NCBI GenBank assembly: GCA_900128565.1
Contig: LT635910.1
Coordinates: 1-64,000 of the forward strand
Direction of reading: 5' to 3'
DNA from: Stramenopiles sp. TOSAG23-6
Taxonomy: Eukaryota
Length of the DNA: 64,000 nucleotides
The notes below the pieces were generated by a model, which worked only from the letters and a program-made list of their open reading frames with translations, did no database searches and had not been told where the DNA came from. Position numbers and translations under genes: made by a program. Below are positions 1 through 46,433 of this stretch, one piece after another. Each line of letters starts with the position of its first letter. The stretch's first letter is position 1.

Positions 1-69
1 AAAGAGAAAAAAAAATTCATAAATAAAAAAAAAAAAATTCAATTTCAAATTTAAAAAAAAAAAACATAC
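1..69 (-). other. Intron, 5' part only (donor GTATGTTTT at 69)
   Basis: Minus strand reads ttt ct|GTATGTTTTTTTT followed by T-rich sequence and an in-frame stop. Confidence 0.7.
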
Positions 70-12451: not shown

Positions 12452-12846
12452 GTTTCAATAGAAAGCAAATATTCTTTGGAATTAAGTGTTTCGGTGCTTA
12501 CTGCAATGAGTAGCTAGTAACTCCAAATTTGTAGGTGTGTAAATGAAGTAGTAACCAGCATCTTTCAAATAAGAAAGAAAGTAGTAAAAGAAGATATCGT
12601 CTGTAACTACCGTATTTCCGGTTCCGTTATAAATTCAGCGCGTTTTTCGGGTTTTGTTCCAAACTTCCCTCCTCGAAGATTCAACTATAGCTAGTAGAGG
12701 TACTGAGTAGTAAGAAAAGAATATATTGTATACTTGATAAAAAGTATTACAATTTACTCTACATACTTCCATAGTATTGTTATTATCAAATTATTGATTA
12801 AATTTTACATCTTTAAAGTCATATAGTTATATTTGTAGCAAATAGT

Positions 12847-15508: not shown

Positions 15509-15882
15509 TATAAAAGGTTTTTATTCACTGCGAATTAAATAAAGTCTGTGATATTAAATATTGAAAATAGTCGTCTGAAGTCTGAAGAAGAAGAAGGAGT
15601 TTGCGTTGCTCCGCGAAATTTGATTTTGAAAAATCGAAAAGAAAACCCACGAAATAATATTATTACTCTCGGCCTTGGGCCTTAGTAGGTCCTATGGCTA
15701 TATATAGCATTCCACTGGTACTAGTAGTACATTCTCTCCTCCTCCTGTGTCTCCAGAATTTTCATCTAAAGAAAGCATTTGTGATATTCAAATATATTCT
15801 AGCTAGTACTTTAGACTGTGCTCGATCTTGCTTCGATTAGCGATTGATTTTGTACAGTTATTGTTTTGTTTATCCAACTTTC

Positions 15883-19597: not shown

Positions 19598-19936
19598 TTT
19601 GGGTTTGTTTTCTGTTTGTATTTTAAAAATTTCGCCTTTGGGTTTGCTATTCGATTTGAATTCAAATCAAATTTCAAATTTCAAAATGAAGAATGATGAC
19701 ATCCGTACCAAATTTTCGTACTTAAATTTTGCTGTTAAGTGGTCAGCAGTCCAATTCGTTCCTGTGTGTGTGTGTACTCAGTCTTTTTTGAATCGAACCA
19801 CACAGGATATAAACATAAACACAAGAAAGAAAAAAACATATTTGGATCTGCTGAAAGTGAAGCAGACACTTCAGCGTTTAAGAAAGAGGGAAGACTGACT
19901 ATAGTTATACGGTAATTTTTACTATCACCGCATCCG

Positions 19937-26700: not shown

Positions 26701-29700
26701 GCCAAGATAATCATCTTTTATAATTTGAGAACTCACGCGACTTGTTGCTGCTAACCACATTCCTGTAGTCGAAAGAACATCAATTAAAAAGAGATTTCCT
26801 GTTTTAGTTGAGGTGCGCGATAGATTCATTAATTTTATTAAACCTTGTGCAATACTTATCGCGCGTCTTTTATCGTTCATATCCCAAGAACATTTAGCTT
26901 CCAGCATTAACCATTTCATTCGTAAGTTTTTAGAAATACATTTTGATGTATCTTCAGATGTAGTCACTACTGATCGAGCACGTCGAAGGTAATTCATTGC
27001 CAAATGAGGAAATCCAGCCTTACGAGCCAAAAAGGCTGCATTACTTAGGTGTCGCTGTAGTAAATCAAAACCTGCATCACCAAACGTTCTAAGGAGAACT
27101 TCTCTTACACCAATTAAAGGCTGGAGAAGTTCAAAAACATCCACTCCAATTTGTTTATTTTTCATTTCCCAGTTTTGAACTAGTTTACTTAAATTTGTAC
27201 TTAATTTCGTACCTAAAGAATTTTGAATTTGTTGGGTACCACATTCCTCCATTAATTTCTTTACAGCATTAATTTCATAGACACATTGTAACTGTGACAT
27301 TGCAGAATATACACATTTTTTATCTTCAACTGAAGCACGACCATTTATCATATTTGATCCATGAACAGCATTGAAACTTTTTATAAGAAAGTTTTCAGCT
27401 TTTTTTATTGATATCGCATACATATCATCATTACCTGTCGCTACAGACCGCAATACATGAAAGAGACACTGATGCAAGCCCCAATCTGATACATTAGAAT
27501 TTCGAAAGTCTTTTACTATTGTTTGTTCCGATTTATATTTTTGAGTATTTTTTGTATTTTCAGTTGTATTTTTAGGGTTAGGGTTTATCATTTCATCATT
27601 TTTATAATCATTTGAAATCCATAAATTAGAAGGATCATTTCGCCAATGAGAACACAAATACGCTGCTTCAAAATGAATTTCAATTAATTCTTTCGATGTA
27701 CGTGTGTCTACTTGGCGTGCATATGAATCGAGGTATAAACCAATTGTATGATATAAACTTTGACATTTCATTGTTTTAATTAGAGATAAGTATCCGTTGG
27801 ATCCGTTGGAACAATTATCTATACTATTATTTGTTGCATGAGTACTTCTGGAATACATATCTCTACCACGTTGTTGTAGCATTGTATCAAATATTGATAA
27901 ACTGTGAGATTGATTCGTTTTAATTCCAGATGTTACATCGCCACATACTCCAGCTATACCATCAGGATCATTTAAGCCTCTATACGATTCTTCTAATAAA
28001 CGTTTATAAATAGGCAAATTCTGATTATCTTCATATACACATTCTAATCTAGAAAAGTGAATATCAATATTTGAATCATCATCAAAATGAAAAATTGAAG
28101 AATTACCAAAACTTTTGTTTTGTAATAATTGTTTCGATTCTGGTAAGTCATGCCATAATTCAACATAAAATAATGCAGTCAAATACAATTTACAACGTAA
28201 TGATGCTTTTGCAATGAGTAAAGGATCTAAGGACAATGAATACAAGTATTGTGAAAAAATATTTTTTTTAGTAAAAAAAAATGTTAGGTGCAATATTTTG
28301 TATGAAAAAAAGTGTAGGTAAAAAATCCAATTTTGAAAAACGTACAATTTTCGTGAAATTCTACGACGTTTTTGTTTTTGTTTTCTTCTATCATTTTTAG
28401 AATTTTGAATTGATAATTGATGAGCAGCGACAGAGTGTTGATGAAGTACTTGTATAGTAGATAGAATAAGTCGAGCAGCTTGAGTTGGCACAGAAATATC
28501 TTCAAGCAAGTTTGTGACCCATAAAGATAAATCATTAATTATCTCTGGATTATTCAACATGTTTAAGACACATAATGGAAATGCGACAGATGCAAAATCT
28601 GCTTTGAGTCGCGACAAACCTGCCGCAGCTTTTAAAAATGGATCCATAACAAAATGACTTGATTTCGCTAAATAAGTTACTCTACATATCCATGTTTCAT
28701 AAGACTCTCCACTTTGAATAGTCCACGAATGCTGCAACATTCGATAATAACTTTTATATTCGTGTTTGTTTTCAGTATTTTTTAAATTTCCTGTGTCACA
28801 AGTAAACTGATTCTTATCATGTTTAAAATGAATAAAAGGGAGTAAATGTTGTTTTGTTAAATCATCTAAAAAATTCATGGCGATTTTCCCACTGTCCGTA
28901 GAAAGCATACCACCGATAGCATACGCTGCTGTGCTAATTACATTTGGATCTGGATCGACTAAACAGGCCTCAGCACTACGAAGTAATTCAGCTTTTGCTT
29001 GAATTAATAAATATTCTTCTCCTAAAGTCTTAATAGTATTACTATTCTTTTCATTTTTGTTTGATGAAAAATTATTGATAGTAGTACAACCTACCAAAGA
29101 GATAATACTTGGATTTACTGTACCAATACATCCTAAACAGCGTGCTGCTAATGATTGCAAAATATATGACTGATCAGGGGAAGTAAATGAAAGTAAAGCG
29201 CGTACAAGGGTATCCATATCAGAAGATATATTATTCTGTGATTTTTGCGATTTTTGAGCTTTCTGTGATAATAAATAAACTAAAGCAGCTGAATGATTTT
29301 CTAAAGTAGATAATAAAGTTTGTAAAGGAAAAATCGCATTTGACCCGTGAAACGATTTTGAATGATCCAAAAACGTTCGCAAAGTTCTTTGAAGAGTTTC
29401 AACTTGACATAATTTTGTATTTGATGAATTATTTAGTGTAGACTGAGAGACCTTCTCATGAATAACAATAGAATTAACGCTTTTACTAGACGATGATGAT
29501 TCTTTAGTGTAGTCTTCATTAGCACTTTTACTAGACGATGATGATTCATTACTATGTTCTTCATTCATTTTTACTATGTACCGTAAATCATCTACTAAAG
29601 ACTTAATTTTATCCATATCAGTAGAATGTAATACCACATCCACATTTGTTGTTTTCTTTTTATTACTTGTATCAATAGTATTTAATTCGAAACAAATACT

Positions 29701-32700
29701 AAATGCGGCAATGAGCTCAGGAAATCGCATTAAAAAGAAATCAATACGTTTTAGTAATAATAGATGTTTTCTACTCAAGGATGAATTGTTTTTGTTTTTA
29801 CTGTAGCTATCTTTCAAATCATTGATTCCAGAACGGTCTAATAAGAGTTGTACTATAGTACAGCACACAAGACAATGACGTTGTTTGTACGTACGTAGAA
29901 TATGTAGTATAATATGTACAATCATACGAATTGTCGCAGGCTCTACGGAGATACTTCCAAGTAAATCGATACAAAGTTCAAATGATTGTAGTAATCGATT
30001 AAGAATATAAACATTATCACATTCATGAATGTTTTTGTTCATCAGTAAAAGAACTTTCTCAGTATTTGCACGTTTTAATAAATCTTCTGGGGTTTGTTTA
30101 GATTTATGTCTACTAGCAAAGTGAACAATTGCTTTCCGGACACTTTTGATATTTACTAACGCAAGCGTACCTGATTTTTCTAATGCAGCGACAGAAAATA
30201 ATCTATTGATTAACCCCAATGTTTGTTTTGGAGTACACAAGCCATTCATCATTTTAGATACTGAACCGTATATATTGACTAACCATTTCTCTGCTTGTGT
30301 CGCCAATTTATGATCTGTTGGAAGTTTGGTGAAATAAAGAGGTAGAAATGAACCGACTATATCACCTAAATTTGCATCAATAAATTGGCAAATTGCAGAT
30401 TTCAGTATATTTGAATCACTTTGAATAGAAATATTTTTCATATTAATTGATCCTTGTAAATGCATTGCACTTACTAAAAGTTTTATACGCTCCGCGTTTG
30501 AATTTCGTACAATTAAAACTGATAATACTACAGGTAATGCTCCACAATGCTCTGATAAAAAATTGTTCCAACTACTCGTTCCCATTAATGATATTGGGAA
30601 CGATTCTATAGATGCATACTCTTCAATCCAACGAAATAAAATATATTCGAGATATTCTTGTAGATATTCCTGAGTATTTTGAAATCCCAAAGAAGTAGCA
30701 ACACGTGAGAGGATACATGAAGTACTACACTCAATTTCTGGAATACAATAAAATGTACACAACTTATATAACGAATCTCGTCGGTGTTCAAGTACTTTAC
30801 TTCTTTTAGCGACTTCACCAAGTGTTAATAACCCGGTAATACATTTATTGTTTTGATTCATATCGTCATTAGATGACTCATCTTTCTTAGTTTTGATTCT
30901 TGGCATTATACATTCAATGGATTGATCTTTTACTAACACAGAAAACGACTCAACTTCAGTTAATAAAGGTATTACGCTAGATGCAACATGACGCACGGAA
31001 TATTCATTATCTTGCAATAATTTACACGAAATGACTAAAAGCAATTCACCAAACTCACCAGGGGCAATATAAAACCAAGGTATAAGTGTAATTAACCACA
31101 ATCGACGAACTATCGAGTTACGCCAACTTTTTTTATCTTTACCCACAAATTTTAATAAAGCTTCCACATTAGCTAAAATATTATAATTATTTTGATCACT
31201 GGATGAAGTAACAAAAGAAATAGTAGTCGTATTTGAGGAATATAACATCATACCAATATGATATAGTAAACAAAGCAAACGAGACTGGATTTCTGGATGG
31301 CCATGATATTCAGACATAACTAAACGAAATATTTCTAAAATGTCATTTAATCCAAATCTACGTAGATTTTTTTTAGTACAATGATAATGAATGATTAAAT
31401 CACATGCACAACCAATACAAGTCAATGCTATCACTGGGTTTGCAATGAGTTTGGGATTTTTTAATATTTGGCGTATTTGTTGTATTACATTTTTCACTTT
31501 TAAAATTTTTAAATCTTGAATATTTTTTGATTTACTTTTACTTGATTGAGTTTCTTCATCTGACGAATAAATACATGTCATTATTGTGTTACATTGCAGC
31601 ATCAAACAAGTACACATACAAAGTTCAATAATATTATTTGACCCATTGATGACTTGAAGCATGTTTGTTCCCGAATGAGTGACTTGACTACAATACACAA
31701 CCGAACAAGACGCTAGAAGGTCTAATGAAAATAATTCATCTACCTTTAACATTCTTTTTGTTCTATTATTATATTCATTTTCAACTCTATTTTTTCCATT
31801 ATAATTTTCTGTATCAATATCATCCTCATCACTATCGAAGCCACCGCTGCAACTTCTTTTTCCAGATAAATTCATTTCAAAAGACTGATATGATGTAGAT
31901 TGTGTTTGTTGCATTGTTTTCATACACAAATCTATATGCTGTGTTAACCATTTTAATATACAGTTTACATAATCTTTATTCTTGTACACTAGACTACTGC
32001 TACATTTTTCAGTATCCAAAGAATTTGAATTATGATCAACATCGTTATTGACAAACATTCTAGACGATAAATATATTATGGTAGAAGGATCCATAGTGAA
32101 TGATTCATCATACTTTGTTACATTTTGATTATTTGATGTATCACAAAATTTTCCCAAACAAATGGTCATAAAACGTTTTACTCTAGCAATCAATTTGAGA
32201 GTATTTTTCAATGCCGTTTCACATTGAGAACGTTTTAACGAATTGACCAATGCATTTAAAACCTTTTTCATTGCACTTGTTGAAGAAACAACAAAAGCTG
32301 TAATTCGACAAAATGTTTTCATACTAAACTTCTTACCTAAATCCTTTTTTACATTATTCTTATCAATGTCCATTGATTCTTTCTTATCTGTTGAAGAGTT
32401 TTCTACATATTCCTCATAATATTGTTGAAGTTCTATAAATGATGCATTTACAGTATCAATAACCATTGATACAAGCACACGTTGTTGTTCTATTGTAACT
32501 AAATTCATACTTACAAACGTTGGAACATTTGGACAATTACCTAAAGGATCAGCATTTGGCAAATTCGAAATTGAATCTGTACCTAATTTCGTACCTAACG
32601 AATTTCTAATTTGTTGAGAGTCATCTACTGTAGTGTCATATTCAAACATATGATATAATGGATTAGTACTAAATAACACGTTCTCAGCATTTGAAATCCA

Positions 32701-35289
32701 CTTTTTCATGCATACATCAACAGTTTTAATTTCGGGGAGATTTTCATAGTAATTTGAATTGTTCAATTCTGTTAATGATTTTTGAACTTTTGTAGATGGA
32801 ATGATGAAATAACCTTTCAAACCACCTACTCGAAAGGCATCTAATGTGCATTTATTCCATACATCACTATATAGTGATTTTGATATGAGTTTTTCTATAT
32901 TTGTATTTTCAGTATTTCTTTTTTTTTGAGTATTTTGGTTACAACTGGGACATACTAATGAAATTATATCAGCTATAAAGAATTGTAATCTCTCATGCAC
33001 TTCAACATCAGATTGAATACACTCTTTAATACTAAGATGTGTATCAAAAGTAGTTATCATTTGGTTTTTTATCACTGTATTAAACCACTGTAAAATCTCA
33101 TATAAAATACATTCTCTTTGTGAATTCGGATTAGAATTTTTACGATTGTGAGTTGATCCAATTGTTATACTAGTATTTCCCATACCATATAATTCAGCAA
33201 CATTTAGAAAAGCAGAGGTTATCCCAGTAAATAAAAAACTTTTACTATATCGTGTTCTTTGCGTAATTCCAGAATTACCAGAATTTAATAGTAATATATT
33301 CCAAATATTATTCTGAGTTCTAGATATAAAATGATTTGAAAATATACTATTATTTAAATGTAAAAGTTCACATATGATTTTCACACATAATGAAATGATG
33401 CCTGTTGCATTAGAAGTCTTTGATATCTGAAGTTTTCCTATACATGAACAATATATTTGTTGCCAAGAATTAATGATTGAACACATCACTTTTTTTTTTG
33501 TACGTTTTTTTCCACAAAAGGATGAATTACTTGTGTTATTTATATCAAATGTAATATTTTGTTTTAGTTTTACTTGACATAAGGCATAGATACAACGAAG
33601 TATCCAAAATGTTTCCATTGCAGTTGACTTTTCAGTATCTATCGCAACAAAACGAGAACAGAGAATGGTGATAACATTTTCATATCTTTTTGTAAAAATA
33701 TTTGAAAACATTTCAGGAAAACGAGAAATAAAGTATGTAAGTATTCTTAATGTTGTTATACAATCAATATTACTCGTGGTTGCATCATGTACAGTATCAA
33801 ATTGTAATGTATGTATCAGTTTTTCCAGAGGAGATATTTTTAGTATTGTCTTCATTTTTTTTTTGTTTTCTTGACTCTCTTCAACAGAATATGATCTTTT
33901 TCTTTTATTTGAAATTGAATCTGTAACAAATCCAGACGTTTCCGTACCAAACGAAGTTCGAATTTGCTGAAAACCACCTTCAGTGTTTATGTTCTCTACA
34001 TTTTCAATATTACTTTCTATACGTATTTCTCTTTGGTTTATATTTTCCAAAAACAAATGATGACAATGATATATTAATTCACTAGCTAACATTATTATAA
34101 TACTTTCATTGCGTGGTAAATTATAAATTCGAGTACCTATTGATAATGACTTTGATCGGAGAGAACGTTTCATTGTAATACCTAAAATATCTCCATTACA
34201 TTTGACATTCTGGATTTGCTTACCCAATACAATATGTTCATATAAACGTATTAATAATGAACTTCTTATATTTTTGTTATTTTTGTTGATATGAATTATT
34301 GGATCGTTCCAATGCAATCCACCACAAGTAGCAGGAGCCTTTGAAATACAAACTTGTATTCTTGAATTACGTAAATGAAGTAAAAATAACATAGTAATAC
34401 ATTGTTTACTCCCACTGTGCTTTGGTAAATTAGGCCAAACCCGGAGACAAAAATTGAGAATACCATAGGAATATCTTCGATATGATTGAATAGATTCAAT
34501 AGGGAATCGCTGAAGTACGATACAAATACAATTTATAACTTCTGTGACAGTTGCATTATCATTATGATTACGATTATTAAGCCACGAAGTAACTGTAGCT
34601 AAGACAATTGGTAAATATTTTACAACTACTTTAGAATTTAGAAAATTGCTCAGTAGTAAACAGACAATACGAAAATGTTTCACATCGGAAGAACAAAAGT
34701 GCTTATCCCGGATAAAGCTAAGAAAAGAATGCATCAAATTTCGAAATACACGAGGAGATAATTTACCACAATATTGACATTGTAGTAAAAGTACACGTAG
34801 TATATTGCATGTACTATTATGTAGCTTCATATTAGTCTCTTCCGCATGCAAAATGCGTTCACAATTTTCAAAAATTTCACCAACAACTGAAAGTAAAGCA
34901 GAACCAGGGAGAAAATCTTCAGCTTTTCGAATAACTTCACCAAGTAAATCTTGATCATACTGGCCGCCACGTGAGCTCACAGGTTTCTTTCGGCCTTTTG
35001 ACTCAGCAACTAAATAGTCTAAAATATCTCCGACGAGATCGGCCCACGAAACTCGAATAGACTCTCCTGTCCTTGAATTTTCATTATCAATCAAACGATT
35101 AGCCTCTTTTTGTTTGACTGAATTACGGTTTAGTAAATTCACATACCGTCCATTATTTGCACGAATATAAGAAAATATAAGTTTTTTTCCCTCTTTGCGA
35201 TCAGTTGCTTTCGACGACACAAGCTTAATAATAGCAGAATTAAGAGCGTTCAGTAGTCGATTATTCTCGCGGCGCAAAGCATCCCCCAT
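23766..35289 (-). CDS. ATM: ATM/Tel1 PIKK kinase; exons 35289-28346, 28243-26324, 26148-24839, 24631-24284, 24175-23766; about 3643 aa
   Basis: TAN-like N-terminus ([10 protein letters not shown]), FAT region, kinase motifs [34 protein letters not shown], and [12 protein letters not shown]...MYHGWASWV. Confidence 0.92.
24176..24283 (-). other. Intron GT-AT, 108 nt, phase 1
   Basis: gat cct t|GTACGTTTT...TACCTAAC...TTCAC AATCTAT|tg tat aaa tgg restores HDPLYKW. The intron holds an in-frame stop and no AG. Confidence 0.88.
24632..24838 (-). other. Intron GT-AG, 207 nt, phase 1
   Basis: cct t|GTACGTAT...TTCAC ATTACAG|gt atg tgg gives FPLPCMWYAKR. Confidence 0.9.
26149..26323 (-). other. Intron GT-AT, 175 nt, phase 2
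   Basis: gca aa|GTACGTTTT...TTTTTCAC AATGCAT|a tat gtt cgt gives AEIAKYVRELK. Confidence 0.8.
28244..28345 (-). other. Probable stop-free in-frame intron GT-TT, 102 nt
   Basis: aaa tt|GTACGTTTT...CACCTAAC...TTTTTCAC AATACTT|g tat. It reads through as a Phe-rich 34-aa insert. Confidence 0.7.
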
Positions 35290-35765
35290 TGTACCGAGTG
35301 AACAAAAGCACTCGCAAAAATAAACTTGTTATTGTATCAATAATACAACATGAGTAAATTGAATATGGTTGGTTGGCTTGGGGTGGCAAGAGTGTTAATA
35401 ATATCAGAAAACTTGGCCGAACTCTCGCTTCTCCTCGCTTCGTTCATCAAAATGACCGAGCTGGGTTGAAAAAAAATCGAAATTATTTCGATTTCGTGTT
35501 TCAAAAATTATTTCTTTTTTTTGAAATCAAAAAAATCATCGTCATCGACTCATCATCGTGTGCCTCTATTTTTTACTCTTCATATTATATAATCTTCCTG
35601 CACATTGAAATTTCACCATTGCAGAATTACACCTCTTAGATATTTGCCATCTGCATCGGATTATATAATTAAGTCCAAATATTACTTTGGATACTGGCCG
35701 GCTCAATCATATTTGGAGAAGAGTTTCTGTGAGAGGTACGAATCTAGTGTTCACTAAGTTCTCTA

Positions 35766-35984
35766 ATGTCTGGACTAGTCAAAAATAGTTCAAACCTAGC
35801 CGCTACACCATCAAGTGTTATGAATGAAATTTCACACTTTACTCGATGGGCAGAATCGGGGAAAGAATCAAAAGAGATTTACCAGCGAACAAAACAAGAC
35901 TTATCTGTAGAAATCCTCGATGACCTCCGGAAAGAAATTGCTGAACTTGCAAAGGACCACTGGATGTTTGTTGAAGGTTCATAG
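35766..35984 (+). CDS. Small protein, 72 aa, SAMBA/APC16-like C-terminus
   Basis: ATG-initiated ORF divergent from ATM, ending LDDLRKEIAELAKDHWMFVEG. Similarity is from recall only. Confidence 0.6.
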   Translation: MSGLVKNSSNLAATPSSVMNEISHFTRWAESGKESKEIYQRTKQDLSVEILDDLRKEIAELAKDHWMFVEGS

Positions 35985-36509
35985 TAGTAGAAATATGATA
36001 GAAACCTTTAGAATATATGTAGTTATATAATTGATTTATGAGGATTCTGCGGAATTATGAAGATTAAATTTTTATTCTTTATATTTTTCTTTTTAGCTAA
36101 AAGCAGCTATATCATTCGTAACATTTGAAAGAGTTTTAGAATATTTTTTTAAATAACAAATGCAATGCCACACAATTATTTAAATTATACAAACAAGACT
36201 ATCAGACAATGATATTTACATGATATAGATTGAATTTTCATAAACGTTTTGCTTCATGTCTCTTCTTTCCTGTGTAATATTGTGTAAGTACACGAAATAA
36301 ATATTTTTTCATTTTAACGGACGTTCTTCAACCGTTACTTATTATACAGCTAGTAGATAAGGTACCCGTTTGAAAGCACTTTTATACTGAACAATAAAAT
36401 ACGGATAATGTTGGTGCGTAATAGTGATTCTCGCTAAGCCTAGTTGCATCTATGCTATATATCCTCCGCATTTAATTGATAAAACATCTGCTAGAGTATT
36501 AGACATAAA

Positions 36510-39458
36510 ATGGCGGCAATTTCATTCATTCATAGAAAATTCACGAAGATGAAAAAGGAAGAGTCGAAAATTGACCATACTCCCGGGTGGTCTCGGTTAA
36601 AGCACGCACACCACGCAAAGCGACATATCAAGAATTTAGTTATCACAAGACCTATTGCAGCAAGAGTTATTCAAAAGACATTTAAAATATATCTTAAAAA
36701 GAAGCAAGGACTTTTGGCACCGGATACAACTAAAACATCAACGTTGACTACAAGTGACGATAAACTTAATATTGCTAGTAGTTCCACTAAAGAAGTAGAT
36801 GATTGTCTAAACACTCCAGACAAAAAAACAGAAAGTAAATCTGTTGCCGGTATACCAACAGAATATCTTGAGAGAATATTCAATAAACTAGATCATGATA
36901 AAGATGGTTTCTTATCAAAGAAGGAAGTAGGCAAGTTTGCAAAAGAGTTCCACGAAAAAATAACTTCATTCTTTGGTGGAAATTCTCTCGCAGCTGGTTT
37001 CGAGGAAATGGATAGAACTAAAAGAGGAAAGGTTTCTTTTGATGATGTCATTTGGTGGCATCGCTTACACCACCCAGAAACTGAAGAAGAAGTTGAATCT
37101 CAAATACATTTTCTCTTTAATGAGATTGACACAAAGGGCACTAAAACTTTAAATAAAGCTGAGGTTGGCAAGTTGGCTGCAAAGATGGGAGACCGACTGA
37201 AAGGATTTTTCGGATTTAGCCACAAGAAGTTAGATTTAGCATTTGTTCAAATGTCACAAATTGGAAGTTCGGTTGTAACATTTGAAGAATTTTTAGCATG
37301 GCACAAATTCAAACATCCTAAGTTGTATAAAAAGTTAGCTTCGCATAATAAAGATATACAAGAAAGCCATGATAAAGATCAAACTAATACACAGACACAT
37401 ACATTAGTTACAGGCGATCTTCCACCACAGGATGTTGTGATGAAAACGCGGACATCAATTGTAGGTAAAACATCATTTCATCCCCCCAAGACTATGAATG
37501 AAATAATATTAAAAACAAAAATTCTCTTTGATGAGGTGGATAAAAAAAAATGTGGAAGACTAACTATAAGTCAAATGAATGATCTGGCTAAAAAACTTGG
37601 ATATCATCTAGAAAGATATTTTGGTTTTTCTAAGAAGAAGCTTCTAGCAGCATTCGCCGATATGTCACTAGAAGGATCTAGTACAGTTACTTTTGAGGAA
37701 TTTATACTTTGGCACAAAATGTATCACCCAGAAGTATATGCTGAGGTTCCAGATTTACATGGTACAAAACGCATTACTGGTATCAATAGTTTGATGTCGA
37801 AATGCTCCGTAGCAGGTATACCAACGGAGCATTTTCGATTGATTTTTACTGAACTTGACACAGACAATGATGGTTTACTTTCCGAAAAGGAAGTCGGCAA
37901 GTTTGCAAAAGAGTTCCACGAAAAAATAACTTCATTCTTTGGTGGAAATTCTCTTAAAGATGGCTTCAGAGAAATGGATAGAAAACAAATGGGTCGTGTT
38001 TCGTTTAATGATTTAATTTCATGGCATCGAAAGCATCACCCAGAAACAGAAGATGAAATTACTTCACAAGTACAGTTTCTTTTTAACCACGTTGACCAAG
38101 AGAAATCTGGATTTCTGAATAAAAAAGAAGTAGGAAAACTTGCTTCTAAAATGGGTTATCGATTGAAAGGATTCTTTGGAATAAACCATCAAAAATTAGA
38201 CATTGCATTTTCAGAAATGGTAAAACCTGGAGAATCACGTGTCACATTTGATCAGTTTATAAAATGGCATAAAATACACCACCCTGAAGTTTATCGAATG
38301 GTTAAAAAACATATACCAGTCAATTTAAAGGCTCGTCAATGTGAAGAAGATAGACCAATAAAAAAATCATGTGAAGAAGATAGACCAATAAAAACATCGT
38401 GTGAAGAAGATAGACCAATAAAAACATCCACTACAGCCAATGTCAAAGTAGACGTAGACACATGGACTGCAACAACTTGTGCACATCTTGAAGATGCACT
38501 ATCAGCCAATACATCAAGGAAACACATTCATCATGATGTGAATACGCTGCTCAACGATCTCCCAGCTGATTTGAGTGCAAGCCTTCAAGTTGCCATGTCT
38601 ATGAAAAATAAAGCAATTAGTAGGTTGAACGTAGAAATGGAAAATAAAGAGATTCTTTCAGGAGCACTGAAGTATTTGCGCAAAAATAATCTTATTCCCC
38701 CAAAGAGTTCTCATATTACTGCCGACACTTCAAAAGGAGAATTTCCAGAGTTACCAGGAGTACACTCAATTTTTACCATAGCCCTGAGGAAAATACATGA
38801 CTGTTTGTCATCAGTATCTGTACTTTCTGAGCTTTCTGATTGTGATACCGAAAATACTGGTTTACTTGATACGTCTACTGTTTTCCAAAAGCTTGACAAG
38901 CATTTGAGATTTCCTCCTCTTGAAAAAGCAGCCGTATTCCTATTGATAGATCCTAATGGTGAGGGCAAAGTTCCATATAAAGATTTACCAAATATAATAC
39001 CTCAAATCCCAAAGCCTGTGAAATGTAGTTCCTCCAATGAATATTTGCATGTAAATAAGAAAGTAGAAAATATAACTTCAAGTTCAGATAATATAGCAGG
39101 TAAAACCCCAATGAAATTATCACCAAAGAACATAGGAAGTGTTTCAGTGACACATGAAAATTTACCAGTGGAAGCCCCACCTAGGGAAATAGAAAATTTG
39201 CCATTAACATTTGAAAGGTTACCATTTAAAAAATCATTGAAATCATCACCTACAAAAATAGGACATGAAAAGTTACGATTGAAAAAATCATTGAAATCAT
39301 CACCTACAAAAATAGAGGATTTGCCATTAACATTTGAAAAGTTACCGTTGAAAAAATCATTGAAATCATCACCTACAAAAATAGAAGATTTATCAGTGGA
39401 ACTTGAAAAGTTAAAGAAAAATTTGCAAGTAAAATTGAAAGCGTTTCTTAGCGAATAA
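36510..39458 (+). CDS. Multi-EF-hand protein with IQ-like motif and internal duplications
   Basis: AARVIQKTFK; repeated EF pairs (DHDKDGFLSKKE, DTDNDGLLSEKE); KFAKEFHEKITSFFGGNSL occurs twice. Confidence 0.88.
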   Translation: MAAISFIHRKFTKMKKEESKIDHTPGWSRLKHAHHAKRHIKNLVITRPIAARVIQKTFKIYLKKKQGLLAPDTTKTSTLTTSDDKLNIASSSTKEVDDCLNTPDKKTESKSVAGIPTEYLERIFNKLDHDKDGFLSKKEVGKFAKEFHEKITSFFGGNSLAAGFEEMDRTKRGKVSFDDVIWWHRLHHPETEEEVESQIHFLFNEIDTKGTKTLNKAEVGKLAAKMGDRLKGFFGFSHKKLDLAFVQMSQIGSSVVTFEEFLAWHKFKHPKLYKKLASHNKDIQESHDKDQTNTQTHTLVTGDLPPQDVVMKTRTSIVGKTSFHPPKTMNEIILKTKILFDEVDKKKCGRLTISQMNDLAKKLGYHLERYFGFSKKKLLAAFADMSLEGSSTVTFEEFILWHKMYHPEVYAEVPDLHGTKRITGINSLMSKCSVAGIPTEHFRLIFTELDTDNDGLLSEKEVGKFAKEFHEKITSFFGGNSLKDGFREMDRKQMGRVSFNDLISWHRKHHPETEDEITSQVQFLFNHVDQEKSGFLNKKEVGKLASKMGYRLKGFFGINHQKLDIAFSEMVKPGESRVTFDQFIKWHKIHHPEVYRMVKKHIPVNLKARQCEEDRPIKKSCEEDRPIKTSCEEDRPIKTSTTANVKVDVDTWTATTCAHLEDALSANTSRKHIHHDVNTLLNDLPADLSASLQVAMSMKNKAISRLNVEMENKEILSGALKYLRKNNLIPPKSSHITADTSKGEFPELPGVHSIFTIALRKIHDCLSSVSVLSELSDCDTENTGLLDTSTVFQKLDKHLRFPPLEKAAVFLLIDPNGEGKVPYKDLPNIIPQIPKPVKCSSSNEYLHVNKKVENITSSSDNIAGKTPMKLSPKNIGSVSVTHENLPVEAPPREIENLPLTFERLPFKKSLKSSPTKIGHEKLRLKKSLKSSPTKIEDLPLTFEKLPLKKSLKSSPTKIEDLSVELEKLKKNLQVKLKAFLSE
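38340..38426 (+). repeat. Coding tandem repeat, 30 bp x3
   Basis: tgtgaagaagatagaccaataaaaa.atc. repeated (CEEDRPIK). Confidence 0.9.
39187..39395 (+). repeat. Coding repeat, three copies of KKSLKSSPTKI
   Basis: aaaaaatcattgaaatcatcacctacaaaaatag x3. Confidence 0.9.
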
Positions 39459-39720
39459 AACATTTGAAAAAAAATAAAAGTAACAATAACACAATATATA
39501 TGAGGAGAAAAAACAGTTCTCAAAAGTATTTTTATGTTTTTATTTATGTACAAAAAAATGTAGGAAACTACGTACCTAAATGACGTTAGTCAATGGTTCT
39601 GTATATTGTTTCATATTGTTTCATTCTAATAAAAATACACGATCAAACACTATAAACAATGTTTTTTACGTCATCTATCAGTCAATGTAAAGGCAACTCG
39701 AAATATAAATAATGAAAATA

Positions 39721-40917
39721 TTATATTCCATACTTAATGTCCATTAATGTTTGCAATATTACAATGAAGAGAATCATCAGACCGCCACTGCCTCCAAGAT
39801 GCAAAGCTTTAAAACCAAATCCAGGATAAACTCCAAGAATTCCTGATTTAGATACTAAATCACCAAAGACTTTGAAATGTGAAGCAAAATGTTGAACAAA
39901 TTTACCACCACATGATTTAGATTCATCCGATTCTGAAGGTTCTTCGCGTATCATTTGACGTTGAACAACAGAACGAACAACATCAGGTGGAGTATTAAAA
40001 ACTGTTGCAAAGGAACCCGCAATGAAAGCAGAAATAAATTTAGCCAAGAAATAGAAGATTACGTGAGTTGCACCCATTAATCCAAACCATTGATTAAAAG
40101 GTTTACGGAAAAATCCAATCATCATGAAAAAGAGACCGGTCCAGATACCATTTCTCAACTGCATACCAAACCATCCAGAGTAAACACCAGCAAAACCATG
40201 TGTTTTGTACATGTGCTTTAACGCAGCAAAAACACTGTTTTTAAACTTATTTTCAGAGTCAATTTGAAGTGCAATTTTTGCAACTTCAAGTGGAGTTACA
40301 ATAAATATTTCAGGAAAAGTAGCCAACATACCGATTGGTCCTTTGATGTAGAAAGGAGTTGTAGCCATAGTTGTTCCGTTAATGTGTTTACAAAACAAAC
40401 CGAAAAAGAAAAATTTGGAGGCTCTCATCAAACTGGATTTAATAATCTCAGCAAGGGCTCCTTGCTTAACAAGACCTTTAAGTCCGTGTGTTTTAATGAA
40501 ATCTTTGATAGACATTGGGTTTTCCTGTCCAGCAGAAGCCATTTTCAGCGCTCTTATGACGTCAACAGGGTACATGAATAAAGCAGTCAACGCAGCTGCA
40601 ATACAAAGCATTAAGATGCGCCAAAGCTCAGAATCTCGTTTCTGATTTTTTGAAGGTTCATTTGGACTTGGTGCATTATGAAGTGATGTTCCTACGAGTG
40701 CGTATGGAAGAATCAATATGCTCAGCAGTAAGACACCAAGACACCCACCCACAAAATACTTTAACAAGGTTTTTCTGGATTCGTCAGCTTTTTCTTCTTC
40801 GGATTTTCCGACTTGAGAATTTCCACTGGTCTTTTTGATTGCAGTAAAGTTACTGGAGCTTGATATCTCATCCTTTTGAGATTCAATGTCTTGTTTGTTT
40901 AAGAGTTCTTGTTTCAT
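39721..40917 (-). CDS. Mitochondrial carrier (SLC25) with N-terminal extension
   Basis: Three PxD/ExxR/K signatures: PVDVIR, PLEVAK, PPDVVR. Confidence 0.9.
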   Translation of the reverse strand: MKQELLNKQDIESQKDEISSSSNFTAIKKTSGNSQVGKSEEEKADESRKTLLKYFVGGCLGVLLLSILILPYALVGTSLHNAPSPNEPSKNQKRDSELWRILMLCIAAALTALFMYPVDVIRALKMASAGQENPMSIKDFIKTHGLKGLVKQGALAEIIKSSLMRASKFFFFGLFCKHINGTTMATTPFYIKGPIGMLATFPEIFIVTPLEVAKIALQIDSENKFKNSVFAALKHMYKTHGFAGVYSGWFGMQLRNGIWTGLFFMMIGFFRKPFNQWFGLMGATHVIFYFLAKFISAFIAGSFATVFNTPPDVVRSVVQRQMIREEPSESDESKSCGGKFVQHFASHFKVFGDLVSKSGILGVYPGFGFKALHLGGSGGLMILFIVILQTLMDIKYGI

Positions 40918-41244
40918 TTTGGAAGAAATTAGACCGTTGTAGTGTGCTACAGATGTGTTCGAAGTGCGTTCGAAGTTGTCCCGACCTCTTCACTTGAAAC
41001 TACTCGATGCACACTGACTTTATTCTGGAGAAAAACGCATTTTCGTACTTAAAAATCCGTACCAAAAAAGTGGAGAATTCAAAATTTCAAACACGTGTTA
41101 CATTGATGATGTCTGTGAGTCTGTCACGTCGACTGGTCACTCGCACTGGCCAAGTGATCCAGATCCACTGCTGGCCAACGAAAATTGGAAGGTTGATGAA
41201 AAAAAGTTATCTCAAGATTATACAATAAGTGCAACAATCCCAAT

Positions 41245-42881
41245 ATGTTTCCTGTACATACATGTAGACGCTTCTTTTCTTCACCAGCTGTCCGTGAAAG
41301 GAGCGTTGATTTTGGCGATATTGTACGTGCAAGTTCATACTTTCGCGAACAAGCTTTCATTGGTGGTACATGGGTTGATAGTACTTCGGGTAACAGCTTT
41401 GATGTAGTCGACCCTGCTTCTGATGAATATATCGGAAGTGTACCGGATATGAATGCTAATGATACTGATATTGCCATTCGTGCTGCTGAACATGCTCTAC
41501 CCTCCTGGTCTAGAAAACTTGCGAAAGAACGTTCTGCAATTCTTGAAAAGTGGCATGATCTTATGCTACAAAACAAGGATGAGCTGGCTCAGATTATGAC
41601 ACTGGAATCTGGTAAACCCCTTGCTGAATCCATTGGTGAAGTTGTTTATGGTGCATCTTTTATAAAATGGTTTGCGGAGGAAGCAAAAAGAGCTTATGGT
41701 GATATCATACCTGAACCTTTATCTGGTCGAAAACTATTGACAGTGAAAGAACCAGTGGGAGTATGTGCTTTTGTGACACCATGGAACTTTCCTATTGCAA
41801 TGATCACACGAAAAGCTGCCCCAGCACTTGCTGCTGGATGTGCCTTTGTTGTAAAACCCTCAGAGGAGACCCCTTTTAGTGCTTTAGCTTGTGCAGCAAT
41901 TGCAGAGGAAGCAGGTTTGCCCCCTGGATTATTTAATATAGTAACATCATCGAGAAAAAATACACCTGAAGTAGGTGAAGTTCTTACAAATAGTAAAATA
42001 GTGAAAAAATTTTCATTTACTGGTTCAACAAAAACAGGAAAAATATTGGCTAAGCAATGTGCTAATACTGTTAAACGCGTATCCTTGGAGTTAGGTGGAA
42101 ATGCACCATTTATAGTATTTGATGATGCTGATATAGATGCAGCTATTCAAGGCGTTATGTACGTTTTCATCATGAATTTGAATCTTTTTTTTTTTTCGTA
42201 CTACATTTCGTACCTAACAATTTTTTTTTTACTAAAACGAAAAATATTTTTTCACCGCACATGGATTCTAAATTTAGAAATACTGGACAAACTTGTGTTT
42301 GTGCCAATCGTATTTATGTACATGATACTATATATGATGAATTTGCTGATTTGTTAACTCAAAAAGTAAAGTCTATGCCTGTGGGTCATGGTGCTGTTAA
42401 GGGTGTATTATCAGGGCCTTTGATCAATAAGAGTGCTTTAGAAAAAGTTGAGGATCATGTAAGTAATGCTGTAAAGTTAGGTGCAAAAGTCTTAACTGGA
42501 GGTGATAAACATATTGCTGGTGATAACTTTTATATCCCTACTGTTCTCTCTGAAGTAAATCAAAATATGAAAATAGCAAATGAAGAAACATTTGGTCCTG
42601 TAGCTCCATTATTTCGCTTTTCTAATGAAGAAGAAGTTATAACTGCAGCTAATAATGTTGATTCTGGACTTGCAGCATATTTATATTCAAGAGATATTGG
42701 ACGAGTTTTTCGAGTTTCTCAAGCTTTAGAATATGGAATGGTTGGTGCAAATGCTGGTGTTATATCATCTGAAGTTGCTCCATTTGGAGGAGTGAAAGAA
42801 AGTGGTTTAGGTAGAGAAGGTGGAAACATTGGTATGGATGAATTTATGGAAGTGAAATATATTTGTTTAGGTGGGTTATAA
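41245..42881 (+). CDS. ALDH5A1: Succinate-semialdehyde dehydrogenase; exons 41245-42158, 42263-42881; 510 aa
   Basis: TPWNFPIAMITRK, FTGST, LELGGNAP, SKFRNTGQTCVCANR, EETFGP, PFGGVKESG. Confidence 0.95.
42159..42262 (+). other. Intron GT-AT, 104 nt, phase 2
   Basis: gtt at|GTACGTTTT...TACCTAAC...TTTTTCAC CGCACAT|g gat tct restores QGVMDSKFRNTGQ. There is no AG inside the intron. Confidence 0.9.
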
Positions 42882-43320
42882 TTATTGTAAGAATGAAATC
42901 TGATTTGACAAAATTATTGATTTCTTGGTATAAGAAAAAAAATTAAAAGATCTCACCAAATAATATATTTTATAGTACAGTTTTTATAGCCATCAAAAAT
43001 AGTCAATTTATGGGGAAATTTCGCAATCTTCTCCAAACTAATTTGGTTCTTCAAAGTATTTCCGGCAATTTTATCAAAAGGCTAAAAACTCAAAAAAAAT
43101 GTATTTTCTTTCAAATTGAGCGAGGCAGGCAAAAATTTATTCGCTTCAAGCAGGTTTGCGTGATCATGATTCTGTTGGGTCAAAACGTCGTGTGTCACGT
43201 CTGTCTAAAGTTGCAATACAGTATTTTTTTTTACTATTTCCTACTATAGTCCTGTAGTCGCGACTCAGACAGTCCTCTGTTTCTTCATAGCCTACGTATT
43301 CAATATTAATCCTAAAGATC

Positions 43321-43947
43321 ATGAAAGTATCTAATAAAGCATACAAAAAGTTAATATTACATTCATGCAAACATCCTTCAAAGTCAGTGGATGGTCTTCT
43401 CCTTGGTAAGTTAGTTGATGGTGGTAAGTCTATCGAAGTCGTAGATGCGGTACCCTTGTTTCACAAAAAAACTTTGGCACCAACATTAGAATTTGTTACG
43501 GCTGTAGTTGCGGAGTATGCGACCAAGATGAATCTCGTAATTGTTGGCTATTATATTGCAAATGAGTTGAGTTCAAATCGTGAACTTCCAGGTTTAGCTA
43601 GATCTATTGGTGATACAATTCAAGCAAAGTGTCCGTCCGCTGTGCTTTTTCTCGTCGACGCAGACTTCATTGGTAACACTGAGCGACATGCAATTCGTGT
43701 TTTCAGACGTTCAGCGTCCAATAGAAATGATGAGTGGAAAGAAGTAAAAAGTGATACTGCAGCATCACCTATTTTGGATAATAATGTGTTGACTGACGTG
43801 TCAGAGCTTTTATCAAGTGAAACTGATGGAAACGGCGAACCTTTATGGTTTACGAAGCTTAGTGACTGGGACGATCATTTGGAAAATTTGTCATTAGATT
43901 GGCGTTGTCCTGAATTATCAGATGATGGTGAAGTCATTGACTTTTAA
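43321..43947 (+). CDS. EMC8: ER membrane complex subunit 8/9 (MPN-like)
   Basis: AYKKLILHSCKHP...VDGLLLG, DAVPLFH, GYYIANE, DWDDHLENLSLDW. Confidence 0.9.
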   Translation: MKVSNKAYKKLILHSCKHPSKSVDGLLLGKLVDGGKSIEVVDAVPLFHKKTLAPTLEFVTAVVAEYATKMNLVIVGYYIANELSSNRELPGLARSIGDTIQAKCPSAVLFLVDADFIGNTERHAIRVFRRSASNRNDEWKEVKSDTAASPILDNNVLTDVSELLSSETDGNGEPLWFTKLSDWDDHLENLSLDWRCPELSDDGEVIDF

Positions 43948-44012
43948 ATAAAATTAAGTTTTGAATAATGGATAAATTGTTTCAGTTATTTATAAATCTT
44001 TATAACAAAAAA

Positions 44013-45485
44013 TTATCCCTTGTGACGGCGTGAACGTTTTCTCTTCCCTTTCTTTTTCTTAACAGCTTGAAGAAGATCAACAGATGCATCAGAATCAGAA
44101 TCCATTAATTTTTGAGTATTTGATGAAGTCTTCGATGACGTTTGCTCAGGACCTGTCAAAGACGTAGAACTGATTGATACACTATTTTCGTTAGGTAGGA
44201 ATTTTACGGATTTATCTGTACTATTTTCATTTGGATGTTTTCGTATTGATTCTACTACATGATTCTCAGGATTTTCTTCGTTATTTGTCATTGTATTATC
44301 ATATATGGTACTATTTGCATGAATACTTTCGTCTATTTGTTTTTTTTGAGAATTTACCTCCGAGTCAATTTCAGTCCATCGACTTTTCAACTCTTCCGCA
44401 CCAATTTTCGGCTTTGCCATAATTAATACGTCATCTTTTTTCAAATGACTGTCATCATTTGACTGCGCTGTGGTTGATGGTGTTGTTTTTGCGTTTAATT
44501 CAGGAAATTGATTTTGAATAGCAGAAAGTAAATGTGAGGTTGGCATTTTTGTCATCGATTGTGGACGAAAAGCTAGTCTCCTTTCACTTGCACGTCTTTC
44601 ACCATCCTCAAGAGCACTACGAAGTTGCTTAGTTACATGTAACGCCTTTTCGGCAGCTACATGTGCACAACGTAGTAATTGTTCTATCGTAAGTGCACAG
44701 CCACCAGCTTTTCGCACGGCACAAAGTTCTCTGTGTGAATTTAGAGAGAAGGTTACACAACCGTCCATCAGTAACTCCTCACGTGCCGATGGATCAACAA
44801 TAATCACTTGATTGTGATTATTTGCTGTTTCATCAGAAGACACTTCTGTAGATATACCATCACCAAATGCAGCAAATGTAATACATATAGGTAAATGATG
44901 TATACTCAAGGGAACAGGCATACGTTCCAAGTATGAGTGAACTGTAGCGATACCATTTTCAACTGTCACAAAAGGCTTACGGAAGTGCATGAGTGCAGCA
45001 ATAACAGCAAGTGCACAAGTATCAACTATATTTCCCATTGCATCTAAAATGTGAATATCTATTCGTATTGACCAAACACGCTCTCCTGCCACAACACATA
45101 ACGCTTCAAGGTCTATTGCATTTCCATCTTTTAGTGCACGTTCAAGAAGAGAACGAATAGTAGTTGCTTCAGGACCCGGGCGACCAGAACTGTCAAATGC
45201 AGGACTCGCCATAGGTGACATTTCAACATTTATGGAAAGAAAACCTTCCGTAGGTTTTCCTGATTGGGGTGTAACAAGTTCTGAAGTAGCGACAGCAAGT
45301 ACCCGTGTTTGTCCGATTTGTACCTCAGCACGAGATTCGGCGTGGTCTCTGCCGAAACATATGCGAATATTTCTCATTTCCATGAGATGTCGACCATCCG
45401 TGCGAAGCCCTTCGTGTAATGAACTAATAGTAAAAGCTTTCTCACACGCTGGCATGAGTTCTGAAATATCAGCATGCTTAGCCAT
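44013..45485 (-). CDS. RRP45: Exosome RNase PH-like subunit RRP45/EXOSC9
   Basis: RTDGR, IDLEALCVVAGERVWSIRIDIH, PVPLSIHHLPICITF. Confidence 0.92.
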   Translation of the reverse strand: MAKHADISELMPACEKAFTISSLHEGLRTDGRHLMEMRNIRICFGRDHAESRAEVQIGQTRVLAVATSELVTPQSGKPTEGFLSINVEMSPMASPAFDSSGRPGPEATTIRSLLERALKDGNAIDLEALCVVAGERVWSIRIDIHILDAMGNIVDTCALAVIAALMHFRKPFVTVENGIATVHSYLERMPVPLSIHHLPICITFAAFGDGISTEVSSDETANNHNQVIIVDPSAREELLMDGCVTFSLNSHRELCAVRKAGGCALTIEQLLRCAHVAAEKALHVTKQLRSALEDGERRASERRLAFRPQSMTKMPTSHLLSAIQNQFPELNAKTTPSTTAQSNDDSHLKKDDVLIMAKPKIGAEELKSRWTEIDSEVNSQKKQIDESIHANSTIYDNTMTNNEENPENHVVESIRKHPNENSTDKSVKFLPNENSVSISSTSLTGPEQTSSKTSSNTQKLMDSDSDASVDLLQAVKKKKGKRKRSRRHKG

Positions 45486-45631
45486 GGTGTAAATTGCAAC
45501 TACAGATGTACGGCGTAGTGTACAATGGTACGTATGAAATACGAATAGTATGGATTGAACCGACTCTTATTACACGAAATCTCAATCGCGTTTGCAATTG
45601 GAATTGCCATTTTCGATTTTGAGTCTGCACA

Positions 45632-46187
45632 CTCAAGGCCTATAATCAATGTATTTCGTGATTTTTACGTCAAAATGGCCGAAAAACACATTTCTAGTGG
45701 ATTGAAGTGTGAATTTGCAATTGGAGAGTGATGGGGGCCTGGCCCCCACCTCGTACATGCATCAAACTCGAACTTTGTTCAAATATTTCATGGTGATTGA
45801 GGGGAAACTAGTTGTAATTTCTGGCGTGAATCTTTGAAGAAGTATTGTCAAAAAATATTTAAATTATTTTGTTAGGTACAACATTTACTACGAAAAAAAA
45901 TCTCGATCCGAAATCTCCGAATTTCAGAATTTGAGGCGGTATCGTTGATTACTTGCCCTTATACGCATTGTAACATTGTAAGGCTATATTTCAGGTGGTT
46001 GAATATGTCCAGTGATGCCATGAACCAATTGTGTTACCTTTATTAAAGAATTAAAGTACTATATGCAGTGTAGATTATGCACTATTTGACTACTATTGAA
46101 ATTTCGATTTTGGTACGGTTAGGTACAAAAAATGAAAAAAAATAAAAAACACGAAATGAGGCGGTATCGCTGATTATAGGCCTTGAG
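45632..46187. mobile_element. Putative non-autonomous element with 17-bp terminal inverted repeats
   Basis: CTCAAGGCCTATAATCA at 45632-45648 and TGATTATAGGCCTTGAG at 46171-46187, with subterminal ATTTCGTG/CACGAAAT. Non-coding. Confidence 0.6.
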
Positions 46188-46433
46188 CAGCAGGCAAATT
46201 ACCGGGTAACGACTAGCATCTGAGTGACACAAAAAAATTTCGAGAATGTATTGATAATGCNAAAAGTANTNGTANTTCNATATATTCCTTTTAAGGGCAT
46301 GTTGGGGGTAACATTTGTAGTTCACGATTTGAAGCACTACTTTGAAGTACCAATACTTTAAAAATTACAGCGTTTTCATTTTTTGAATTTTTTTCACTCA
46401 GATGCTAGTCTTTTCCCGGTAATTTGCCTGCTG
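46188..46433. mobile_element. MITE-like element, 246 bp, 40-bp terminal inverted repeats
   Basis: CAGCAGGCAAATTACCGGGTAACGACTAGCATCTGAGTGA matches the reverse complement of 46394-46433 with 2 mismatches. Confidence 0.8.

Follow-up and report, generated by a model that had tools for sequence, protein, structure and literature searches.

Introner-like introns with a probable non-AG 3' splice site in the SSADH gene and other genes of Stramenopiles sp. TOSAG23-6

The SSADH gene of Stramenopiles sp. TOSAG23-6 contains a 104-nt insert (positions 42159-42262) that is probably a spliceosomal-type intron belonging to a family of introner-like repeats, with a 3' splice site recognised by motif or distance rather than by an AG dinucleotide. 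All positions refer to the first 64,000 nucleotides of contig LT635910.1 (assembly GCA_900128565.1), read on the forward strand; this whole stretch is referred to below as the window. The repeat family is described as introner-like because the similarity between its members extends well past the splice signals.

The SSADH gene and its insert

The SSADH gene lies on the forward strand, from an ATG at 41245 to a TAA stop codon at 42879-42881, and is interrupted by 104 frame-shifting bases. The upstream frame reads from this ATG to GGC GTT ATG (the last codon at 42157-42159), and the downstream SSADH frame restarts with ATG GAT TCT (42261-42269), at an offset of 104 bases (104 mod 3 = 2). The 305-amino-acid translation of 41245-42159 matched SSADH/GabD structures up to its last residues, the best matches being Escherichia coli GabD (3jz4, E=1.7e-103) and human SSADH (2w8n, E=9.4e-98). 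The frame from 42261 to the stop codon encodes the C-terminal 206 residues, which phmmer aligned with solved SSADHs from residue 2-3 onwards (4v6h, E=8.2e-80; 3jz4, E=8e-78). When exactly 104 nt are removed, the two flanking frames, each open over 150 codons or more, are joined; offsets of ±1 and ±2 fail to do this.

In the GT..AT reading, exon 1 (41245-42158) ends with AT, the first two bases of a Met codon, the intron occupies 42159-42262, and exon 2 (42263-42881) begins with the G that completes this codon, followed by DSKFRNTGQTCVC. The intron opens with the 5' splice-site motif GTACGTTTT (42159-42167), with T at position -1, and carries a branch-point-like ACCTAAC at 42212-42218, the branch A lying 45 nt from the 3' end. 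It closes with a T-run, CAC and 7 nt (TTTTTTCACCGCACAT, 42247-42262), the last two bases being AT. The predicted fold of this intron had an energy of -13 kcal/mol (z = -0.93), equalled or bettered by 35 of 200 shuffled sequences. The only AG dinucleotides within 42150-42300 are those at 42150-42151, in exon 1, and at 42276-42277; none is present in 42151-42275, and the insert is thus devoid of AG. These coordinates, frames and AG positions agree with an earlier note, based on the sequence alone, in which the 104-nt insert was described as frame-shifting and AG-free. The GT-AT join proposed in the same note also matches the intron at 42159-42262, but its borders are not unique, a point that the note leaves out: ATG is present at both of them (42157-42159 and 42261-42263), and cuts of the AT..AC (42157-42260), TG..CA (42158-42261) and TA..TG (42160-42263) types would all give the identical mRNA.

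Comparison with homologues bears on whether the codons immediately downstream from the insert are exonic. In the pairing with GabD (3jz4), residue 304 of exon 1 corresponds to chain residue 276 and residue 2 of exon 2 to residue 278, with no gap; in the pairing with 3ek1, residue 305 of exon 1 corresponds to residue 300 and residue 2 of exon 2 to residue 301. These pairings place one Met exactly between QGV and DSKFRN, without a gap, and a gap in the alignment to the solved SSADHs is avoided only by taking out exactly 104 nt. The closest foreign homologue (P0002; 512 amino acids, 68% identity) has an unbroken 25-residue stretch across the junction, QGVMDSKFRNTGQTCVCANRIYVHD, identical to the spliced reading. 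In human SSADH, according to PMC11681614, Cys340 is the catalytic residue and Arg334 is essential for substrate binding, with Arg334 and Cys342 conserved across the ALDH5 family. The Arg of the SKFR segment encoded by exon 2 is six residues ahead of the first Cys of TCVC, which constitutes the Cys-x-Cys active site, and this Cys pair and the substrate-binding Arg of the ALDH5 family are in frame with exon 1 only upon exact removal of the 104 nt.

The first AG downstream from the insert (42276-42277, forward strand) is the acceptor used in P0001 (449 amino acids; eukprot:GSMAST32.ASY1.ANO1.1333.1), the best database match, which is a model of the same DNA. It provides the only in-phase AG alternative, an intron of 119 nt (42159-42277) reducing six codons to one, and its use would remove the substrate-binding Arg. 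The sequence of P0001, which is identical to the spliced reading at 446 of 449 residues in the aligned blocks, reads QGVINTGQ at this point and therefore corresponds to the 119-nt GT..AG solution. This model additionally drops four in-frame pieces of 30-51 nt (41638-41676, 41764-41814, 41839-41886 and 42384-42413) from conserved SSADH coding sequence, at which the sequence aligns without gaps to solved structures. P0001 looks like the product of a predictor admitting only GT-AG introns, with the four pieces as spurious mini-introns, and the published SSADH gene model seems to be wrong at this intron. The source label of P0001 hints at a MAST-3-type marine stramenopile, in line with the seawater origin of the only RNA runs in which the gene was found.

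Sequence comparison thus supports an exonic status for the SKFR codons and, because the sole in-phase AG would delete them, an acceptor other than AG. This was the central proposal of the earlier note, and it is upheld by the gap-free fit to SSADHs, the stretch in P0002, the role of Arg334 and the eight sister introns with a similar organisation described below. The note had also stated correctly that the first downstream AG is in phase but eliminates the SKFR segment. Its statement that the Arg of SKFR precedes the catalytic Cys and binds substrate is consistent with the roles described for Arg334 and Cys340 (PMC11681614), the six-residue spacing being the same here, and the alignment with SSADH/GabD homologues that it had named as a check gave the gap-free result reported above.

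A family of introns with common signals

The survey for related introns was limited to the 64-kb window and was performed with blastn, using the SSADH intron as the query, together with motif scans and reading of the sequence. The blastn matches include 28346-28238, 2500-2598, 402-335, 24284-24249 and 14119-14011, and two further members, both inside an ATM/Tel1-like gene, were found by motif scans and sequence reading. Nine complete members and one truncated member were identified within the window, in five host genes: four in the ATM/Tel1 homologue, one in a BAR/SH3 gene, one in SSADH and three in two genes without a Pfam family. All nine complete members are in the sense orientation relative to the host open reading frame (ORF). 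Pairwise identity between members ranged from 64 to 94%, over 36-117 nt. The SSADH intron shares 34 of 36 bases (94%) with intron 24283 in their 5' parts, beyond the splice signals, and is 75% identical to intron 28345 over 114 nt (introns are designated by the position of their first base).

The ATM/Tel1-type kinase gene, which extends on the reverse strand from 35328 to 23766 and has a 3009-codon frame, a kinase domain and a FATC-like end, is split by four family introns, all likewise on the reverse strand. Intron 28345 (28244-28345; 102 nt, GT..TT) is stop-free and a multiple of three in length; the 3009-codon ORF reads through it, rendering it invisible to ORF finders. Intron 26323 (26149-26323; 175 nt, GT..AT) has the branch variant AATAAC and an A before its GT. 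Intron 24838 (24632-24838; 207 nt, GT..AG) is the sole AG-ending member; it has TTCAC followed by 7 nt and the branch variant TCTAAT, and its flanking exons meet without a gap at residues 2732 and 2733 of Tel1 (6sky). Intron 24283 (24176-24283; 108 nt, GT..AT) lies in the kinase domain, with an upstream exon that aligns to its final residue with position 2956 of human ATM and a downstream exon bearing the C-terminal FATC-like end. Elsewhere on the reverse strand, intron 14110 (14014-14110; 97 nt, GT..AT) joins a BAR-domain exon to an SH3-domain exon, intron 658 (549-658; 110 nt) is GT..CT under the 7-nt rule described below, although 552-658 (GT..AT) is also in frame, and intron 401 occupies 300-401 (102 nt, GT..AT). 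The tenth member (1-69, reverse strand) is truncated by the window start and has its donor, T followed by GTATGTTTT, at 69. Intron 2502 (2502-2598; 97 nt, GT..AT) is on the forward strand and has an internal AG, 27 nt before its end, that is also in frame.

The complete members, which are 97-207 nt long, share a layout consisting of a GTAYGT donor, an ACCTAAC branch-like motif, a T-run, and TTCAC followed by exactly 7 bases. GTAY is present at the donor in 9/9 members and GTAYGT in 8/9 (intron 14110 has GTACTT), with T at position -1 in eight of the nine. ACCTAAC is exact in seven members and invariant in a seven-sequence alignment, the two exceptions being the variants of introns 26323 and 24838 given above. 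The 3' border lies exactly 7 nt beyond CAC or CTC in all nine (TTCTC replaces TTCAC once), and the branch A is 36-45 nt away from the 3' end. Under this 7-nt rule, the terminal dinucleotides are AT (six members), TT (one), CT or AT (one) and AG (one), with A at position -2 in 7/9 members and T at position -1 in 8/9. Motif scans yielded 61 GTAYGT sites, for which a correctly placed TTCAC plus 7 nt was found only in family members, the remainder being mostly noise.

The borders were assessed by a frame test, in which GT served as the donor and the acceptor was set 7 nt beyond CAC/CTC, with acceptor offsets of ±1 and ±2 as controls. In all nine joins, the frames linked were open over 57 codons or more to either side of the junction (121 or more in six cases). 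The control offsets gave 4-64 codons and none was as good as the 7-nt border. Taking a chance of one in three per join, the probability of nine in-frame joins out of nine is about 5e-5. Within the motif, the AG of intron 24838 stands where the other members have AT and, because its flanking exons meet gap-free in the comparison with Tel1, this member calibrates the position of the 3' cut. As a further control, the first AG after the branch was tested as the acceptor for the eight non-AG members: it was in frame for three (2502, 42159 and 26323), approximately as expected by chance, and out of frame for the other five. No in-frame AG was found within 90 nt downstream from introns 14110, 658 and 401.

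No base pairing between intron ends was detected, with RNAalifold returning 0 consensus pairs for seven family members, and no match in the window reached the Rfam gathering score. Microhomology at the borders is 0-5 nt in length and not constant; the only symmetry is a TGTA(T)...(A)TACA of 4-5 nt, and neither a consistent target-site duplication nor long terminal inverted repeats were found at the borders of the members. A model based on a TGTA target-site duplication was rejected, as it predicts the removal of 109 nt at intron 24283, leading to a stop codon, whereas the removal of 108 nt gives the ATM C-terminus.

Spliceosomal excision and its alternatives

These features suggest that the 104 nt would be removed at the transcript level by the major spliceosome, which is favoured because the GTAYGT and CTAAC motifs are constant, the spacing from branch to end is narrow and the orientation is strictly sense. 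The signals are yeast-like, with T/GTAYGTTTT on the donor side and a branch site of the form ACCTAAC; the yeast consensus sequences are GTATGT and TACTAAC. The borders would be GT..AT, in preference to an equivalent shifted pair, as the GTAYGT-type donor is constant in the family. The 3' site would be selected through the T-run and CAC motif, through the distance from the branch, or both, instead of through AG, with the border falling 7 nt past the T-run and CAC and 36-45 nt past the branch A, usually at AT. Exact excision of 104 nt would restore an intact SSADH with its substrate-binding Arg and Cys-x-Cys active site. BAR and SH3 are a standard pair of domains, and the linkage of their exons through intron 14110 also counts in favour of this interpretation. 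More tentatively, and with slightly less than an even chance in our estimation, the spliceosome of this lineage may be free of the need for a terminal AG, with a T-run and CACAATACA at a fixed distance from CTAAC setting the cut, usually after AT, and most introns of the genome may derive from a single self-propagating introner family that spreads the non-AG acceptor.

Several points weigh against excision by the major spliceosome at non-AG sites. The border dinucleotides are ambiguous, TG..CA fitting eight of the nine members as well as GT..AT does. The members are related by descent, so that the conservation of their motifs may partly reflect inheritance rather than constraint. The analysis covers 64 kb only. 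We know of no studied spliceosome in which a terminal U in place of G makes an efficient 3' splice site. A strict non-AG rule for all members is also called into question by intron 2502, which could be a conventional intron of 70 nt ending at its internal in-frame AG. Finally, the searches in RNA and protein data provided no direct sight of the junction. The gene was found in eight seawater metatranscriptome runs from five studies (shares of 0.06-0.24), and the four runs with the largest shares were mapped, as contigs, on 26281-46260 at 90% likeness. Contigs from the RNA libraries at least 99% identical to the window cover parts of the SSADH exons (41220-41955, 42303-42546 and 42744-43027), but none of the four runs yielded a contig bridging 42158/42263, and such contigs cannot in themselves prove transcription. 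The four joints obtained in the mapping run between copies of the repeat and do not represent splicing, and many contigs matching the repeat core account for the very high depth of bins 41599-42264 and 45595-46260 (summed depth of about 220-580 in two runs). No junction peptide from the same species was found when the last 56 residues of exon 1 were compared with proteins of less than 167 amino acids, the best identity being 83%. A metagenome scan with a 20-mer taken where exon 1 ends returned three loci, all chance matches in unrelated genes without blastn similarity to the window.

A separate observation concerns a contig from a poly(A) library (run X2), which is identical to the window over 42 nt at 42097-42138, in the conserved GGNAPFIVFDDAD region. 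Beyond this match, it continues as a different ALDH sequence, with no insert at the corresponding place, and it comes from another organism or a paralogue.

Among the alternatives, the one that fares best, although we consider it unlikely, is that the same mRNA is produced by other chemistry, with an AT..AC intron at 42157-42260 (U12-type or rare U2-type) or with TG..CA or TA..TG borders. The ATG repeated at the two borders permits all three pairs, AT-AC also fits intron 2502 and contexts like that of intron 14110, and ACCTAAC resembles the U12 branch consensus at 6/8 positions. However, the bases preceding GT in the nine members are AT, AT, TT, TT, TT, TT, AT, TT and AA, so that there is no constant AT start, and GTAY is the sole constant 5' feature (9/9). 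U12-type introns have a 5' consensus of (A/G)TATCCTT and a branch motif, TCCTTAAC, located about 10-20 nt from the 3' end. The 5' end of the SSADH intron reads ATGTACGT or GTACGTTT, unlike the U12 consensus ATATCCTT, and TACCTAAC, which matches the branch motif at the six positions mentioned, lies 45 nt from the end of the SSADH intron, within a family range of 36-45 nt that exceeds the U12 spacing.

Less probable is a canonical GT..AG intron of 119 nt (42159-42277), with an enzyme that is simply five residues shorter. Its cut is in phase and was selected by the annotation underlying P0001, but it eliminates an Arg that is conserved in ALDH5, six residues before the catalytic Cys (PMC11681614), and disrupts the otherwise gap-free fit to solved SSADHs and to P0002. 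The annotation itself is unreliable, given the four other in-frame pieces cut from conserved coding sequence, and an AG-based rescue fails in five of the eight sister introns.

We attach a similarly low probability to an unremoved transposon insertion in a dead copy of SSADH, or to an assembly artefact. The insert is indeed one of a family of repeats, of which partial copies occur between genes, and spliced RNA was not seen in the four mapped runs. However, both exons are open and intact, with 60-68% identity to functional homologues and all of the active-site motifs, and nine sense-oriented elements occupy genes that are otherwise intact, a single ATM/Tel1 gene having four of them. The members have diverged by 25-35%, which implies an age at which dead genes would already have decayed. 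Excision from DNA rather than RNA, as for the internal eliminated sequences of ciliates, is the least probable explanation: the need for precise removal and the short direct repeats at the borders, with TGTA...TACA-like ends, are in keeping with it, but the conserved GTAYGT and CTAAC motifs and fixed branch-to-end spacing are hallmarks of the spliceosome, the strict sense orientation (9/9) is expected of RNA processing instead, and we know of no programmed elimination in stramenopiles.

Related systems, implications and other features of the window

Spliceosomal introns with non-AG 3' ends, as favoured here, can be compared with several known systems. Like the introners of Micromonas, Aureococcus, fungi and dinoflagellates covered in PMC12130899, the members of this family are similar over their whole length, occur in unrelated genes with their own splice signals, have partial copies outside genes and reside in an aquatic protist. 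They differ in that the published introners were filtered for, and described with, the familiar 5' GT/GC/GA/AT and 3' AG/AC ends (PMC12130899), whereas eight of the nine members here end in AT, TT or CT, and neither long terminal inverted repeats nor a clear target-site duplication could be found. The tunicate Fritillaria borealis (PMC13326754) similarly shows a lineage-wide relaxation of GT/AG, with a U2-type spliceosome implicated and non-AG 3' ends. It is, however, an animal in which fewer than 10% of introns are GT/AG, with non-GT 5' ends and a U2AF duplication (PMC13326754), whereas the introns of the window retain a strong conventional GTAYGT and deviate only in the 3' dinucleotide. Amoebophrya, as presented in PMC7789003, is a marine protist with more than 60% non-GT-AG introns, repeated introns, and short direct repeats across the borders that make the cut position ambiguous. 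Its introns differ in having no constant terminal signature, with inverted repeats of 8-20 nt and an end-joining hairpin (PMC7789003), whereas the introns of the window, unlike the hairpin introns of Amoebophrya and euglenids, have highly constant signals and no predicted end pairing. Intron-poor eukaryotes with strong yeast-like signals (PMC2483917) resemble this system in their few introns, extended 5' consensus, CTAAC-type branch and narrow branch-to-3' distance, but have retained the terminal AG. U12-type AT-AC introns have in common with it an AT..AC reading that is possible for the SSADH intron taken by itself and a loosely similar branch motif, but they are set apart by the mismatches in 5' consensus and branch-to-end distance.

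The accessible literature, supplementary tables being outside its scope, contained no account of introns without a terminal AG in MAST-3 or in any other heterotrophic stramenopiles. In the available text of PMC5778133, which does not extend to the supplementary gene-prediction tables, 'splice' and 'canonical' have no occurrences and 'intron' appears in the methods only; 'intron' has no occurrences in the accessible text of PMC8163842 or PMC12614181, and in that of a 2026 bioRxiv preprint on SAGs it is used solely in the context of genome proportions. Large-scale non-canonical introns and protist introners are already known, and the probable non-AG introner-like family described here has good support from sequence comparison.

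If confirmed by RNA, this would be the third independent lineage with a large-scale relaxation of GT/AG, the other two being a tunicate and a parasitic dinoflagellate. Of the three, it would be the cleanest case, with a textbook 5' site and branch and only the last base altered (G to U at position -1, the A at -2 being mostly kept), and would allow 3'-end recognition in the second catalytic step to be considered in isolation. The association of non-canonical ends with an introner family would have a bearing on the spread of new introns. Gene sets for abundant ocean grazers predicted with GT-AG introns only would be damaged at each such intron, and, because P0001 deletes a substrate-binding residue and invents four mini-introns, many errors of this kind may be present in the protein catalogues on which ocean 'omics relies for uncultured marine stramenopiles.

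The window is AT-rich (GC content of 0.28-0.40 in 2-kb windows) and very compact, both strands carrying long ORFs without interruption. It contains 14 scattered single N and an assembly gap of 120 N (18847-18966); the gap falls inside the overlapping reverse-strand ORFs at 18135-19666, rendering the structure of the corresponding gene unreadable. The architecture formed by the BAR and SH3 exons that intron 14110 links (13468-15520, reverse strand) is amphiphysin/endophilin-like and includes a long linker of low complexity, rich in Pro, His and Asn.

An internal near-palindromic module of the introns (GGTACGAAATTTCGTACC-like, next to T/A runs) also occurs outside introns or in the antisense orientation, at 2777-2838, 45869-45915, 46110-46130 and 26266-26317; one of these copies lies 15 nt past a stop codon, one is located between divergent genes and one is antisense in intron 26323. 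At 32579-32612 (forward strand), antisense to the ATM/Tel1 ORF and within coding sequence, a 34-nt stretch resembles the core of the family (GTACC...TTTCGTACCTAAC); it is matched by many RNA contigs and chimeric joints, and could represent either an exonised fragment or a fortuitous similarity. Finally, two GTAYGT sites near possible start codons at 1162-1240 and 12700-12771 (reverse strand) might correspond to short first introns, at 1200 and 12766, or to nothing of note, and the frames are not decisive; one of these candidates has CCCTAAC 10 nt in and one ends in CAG.

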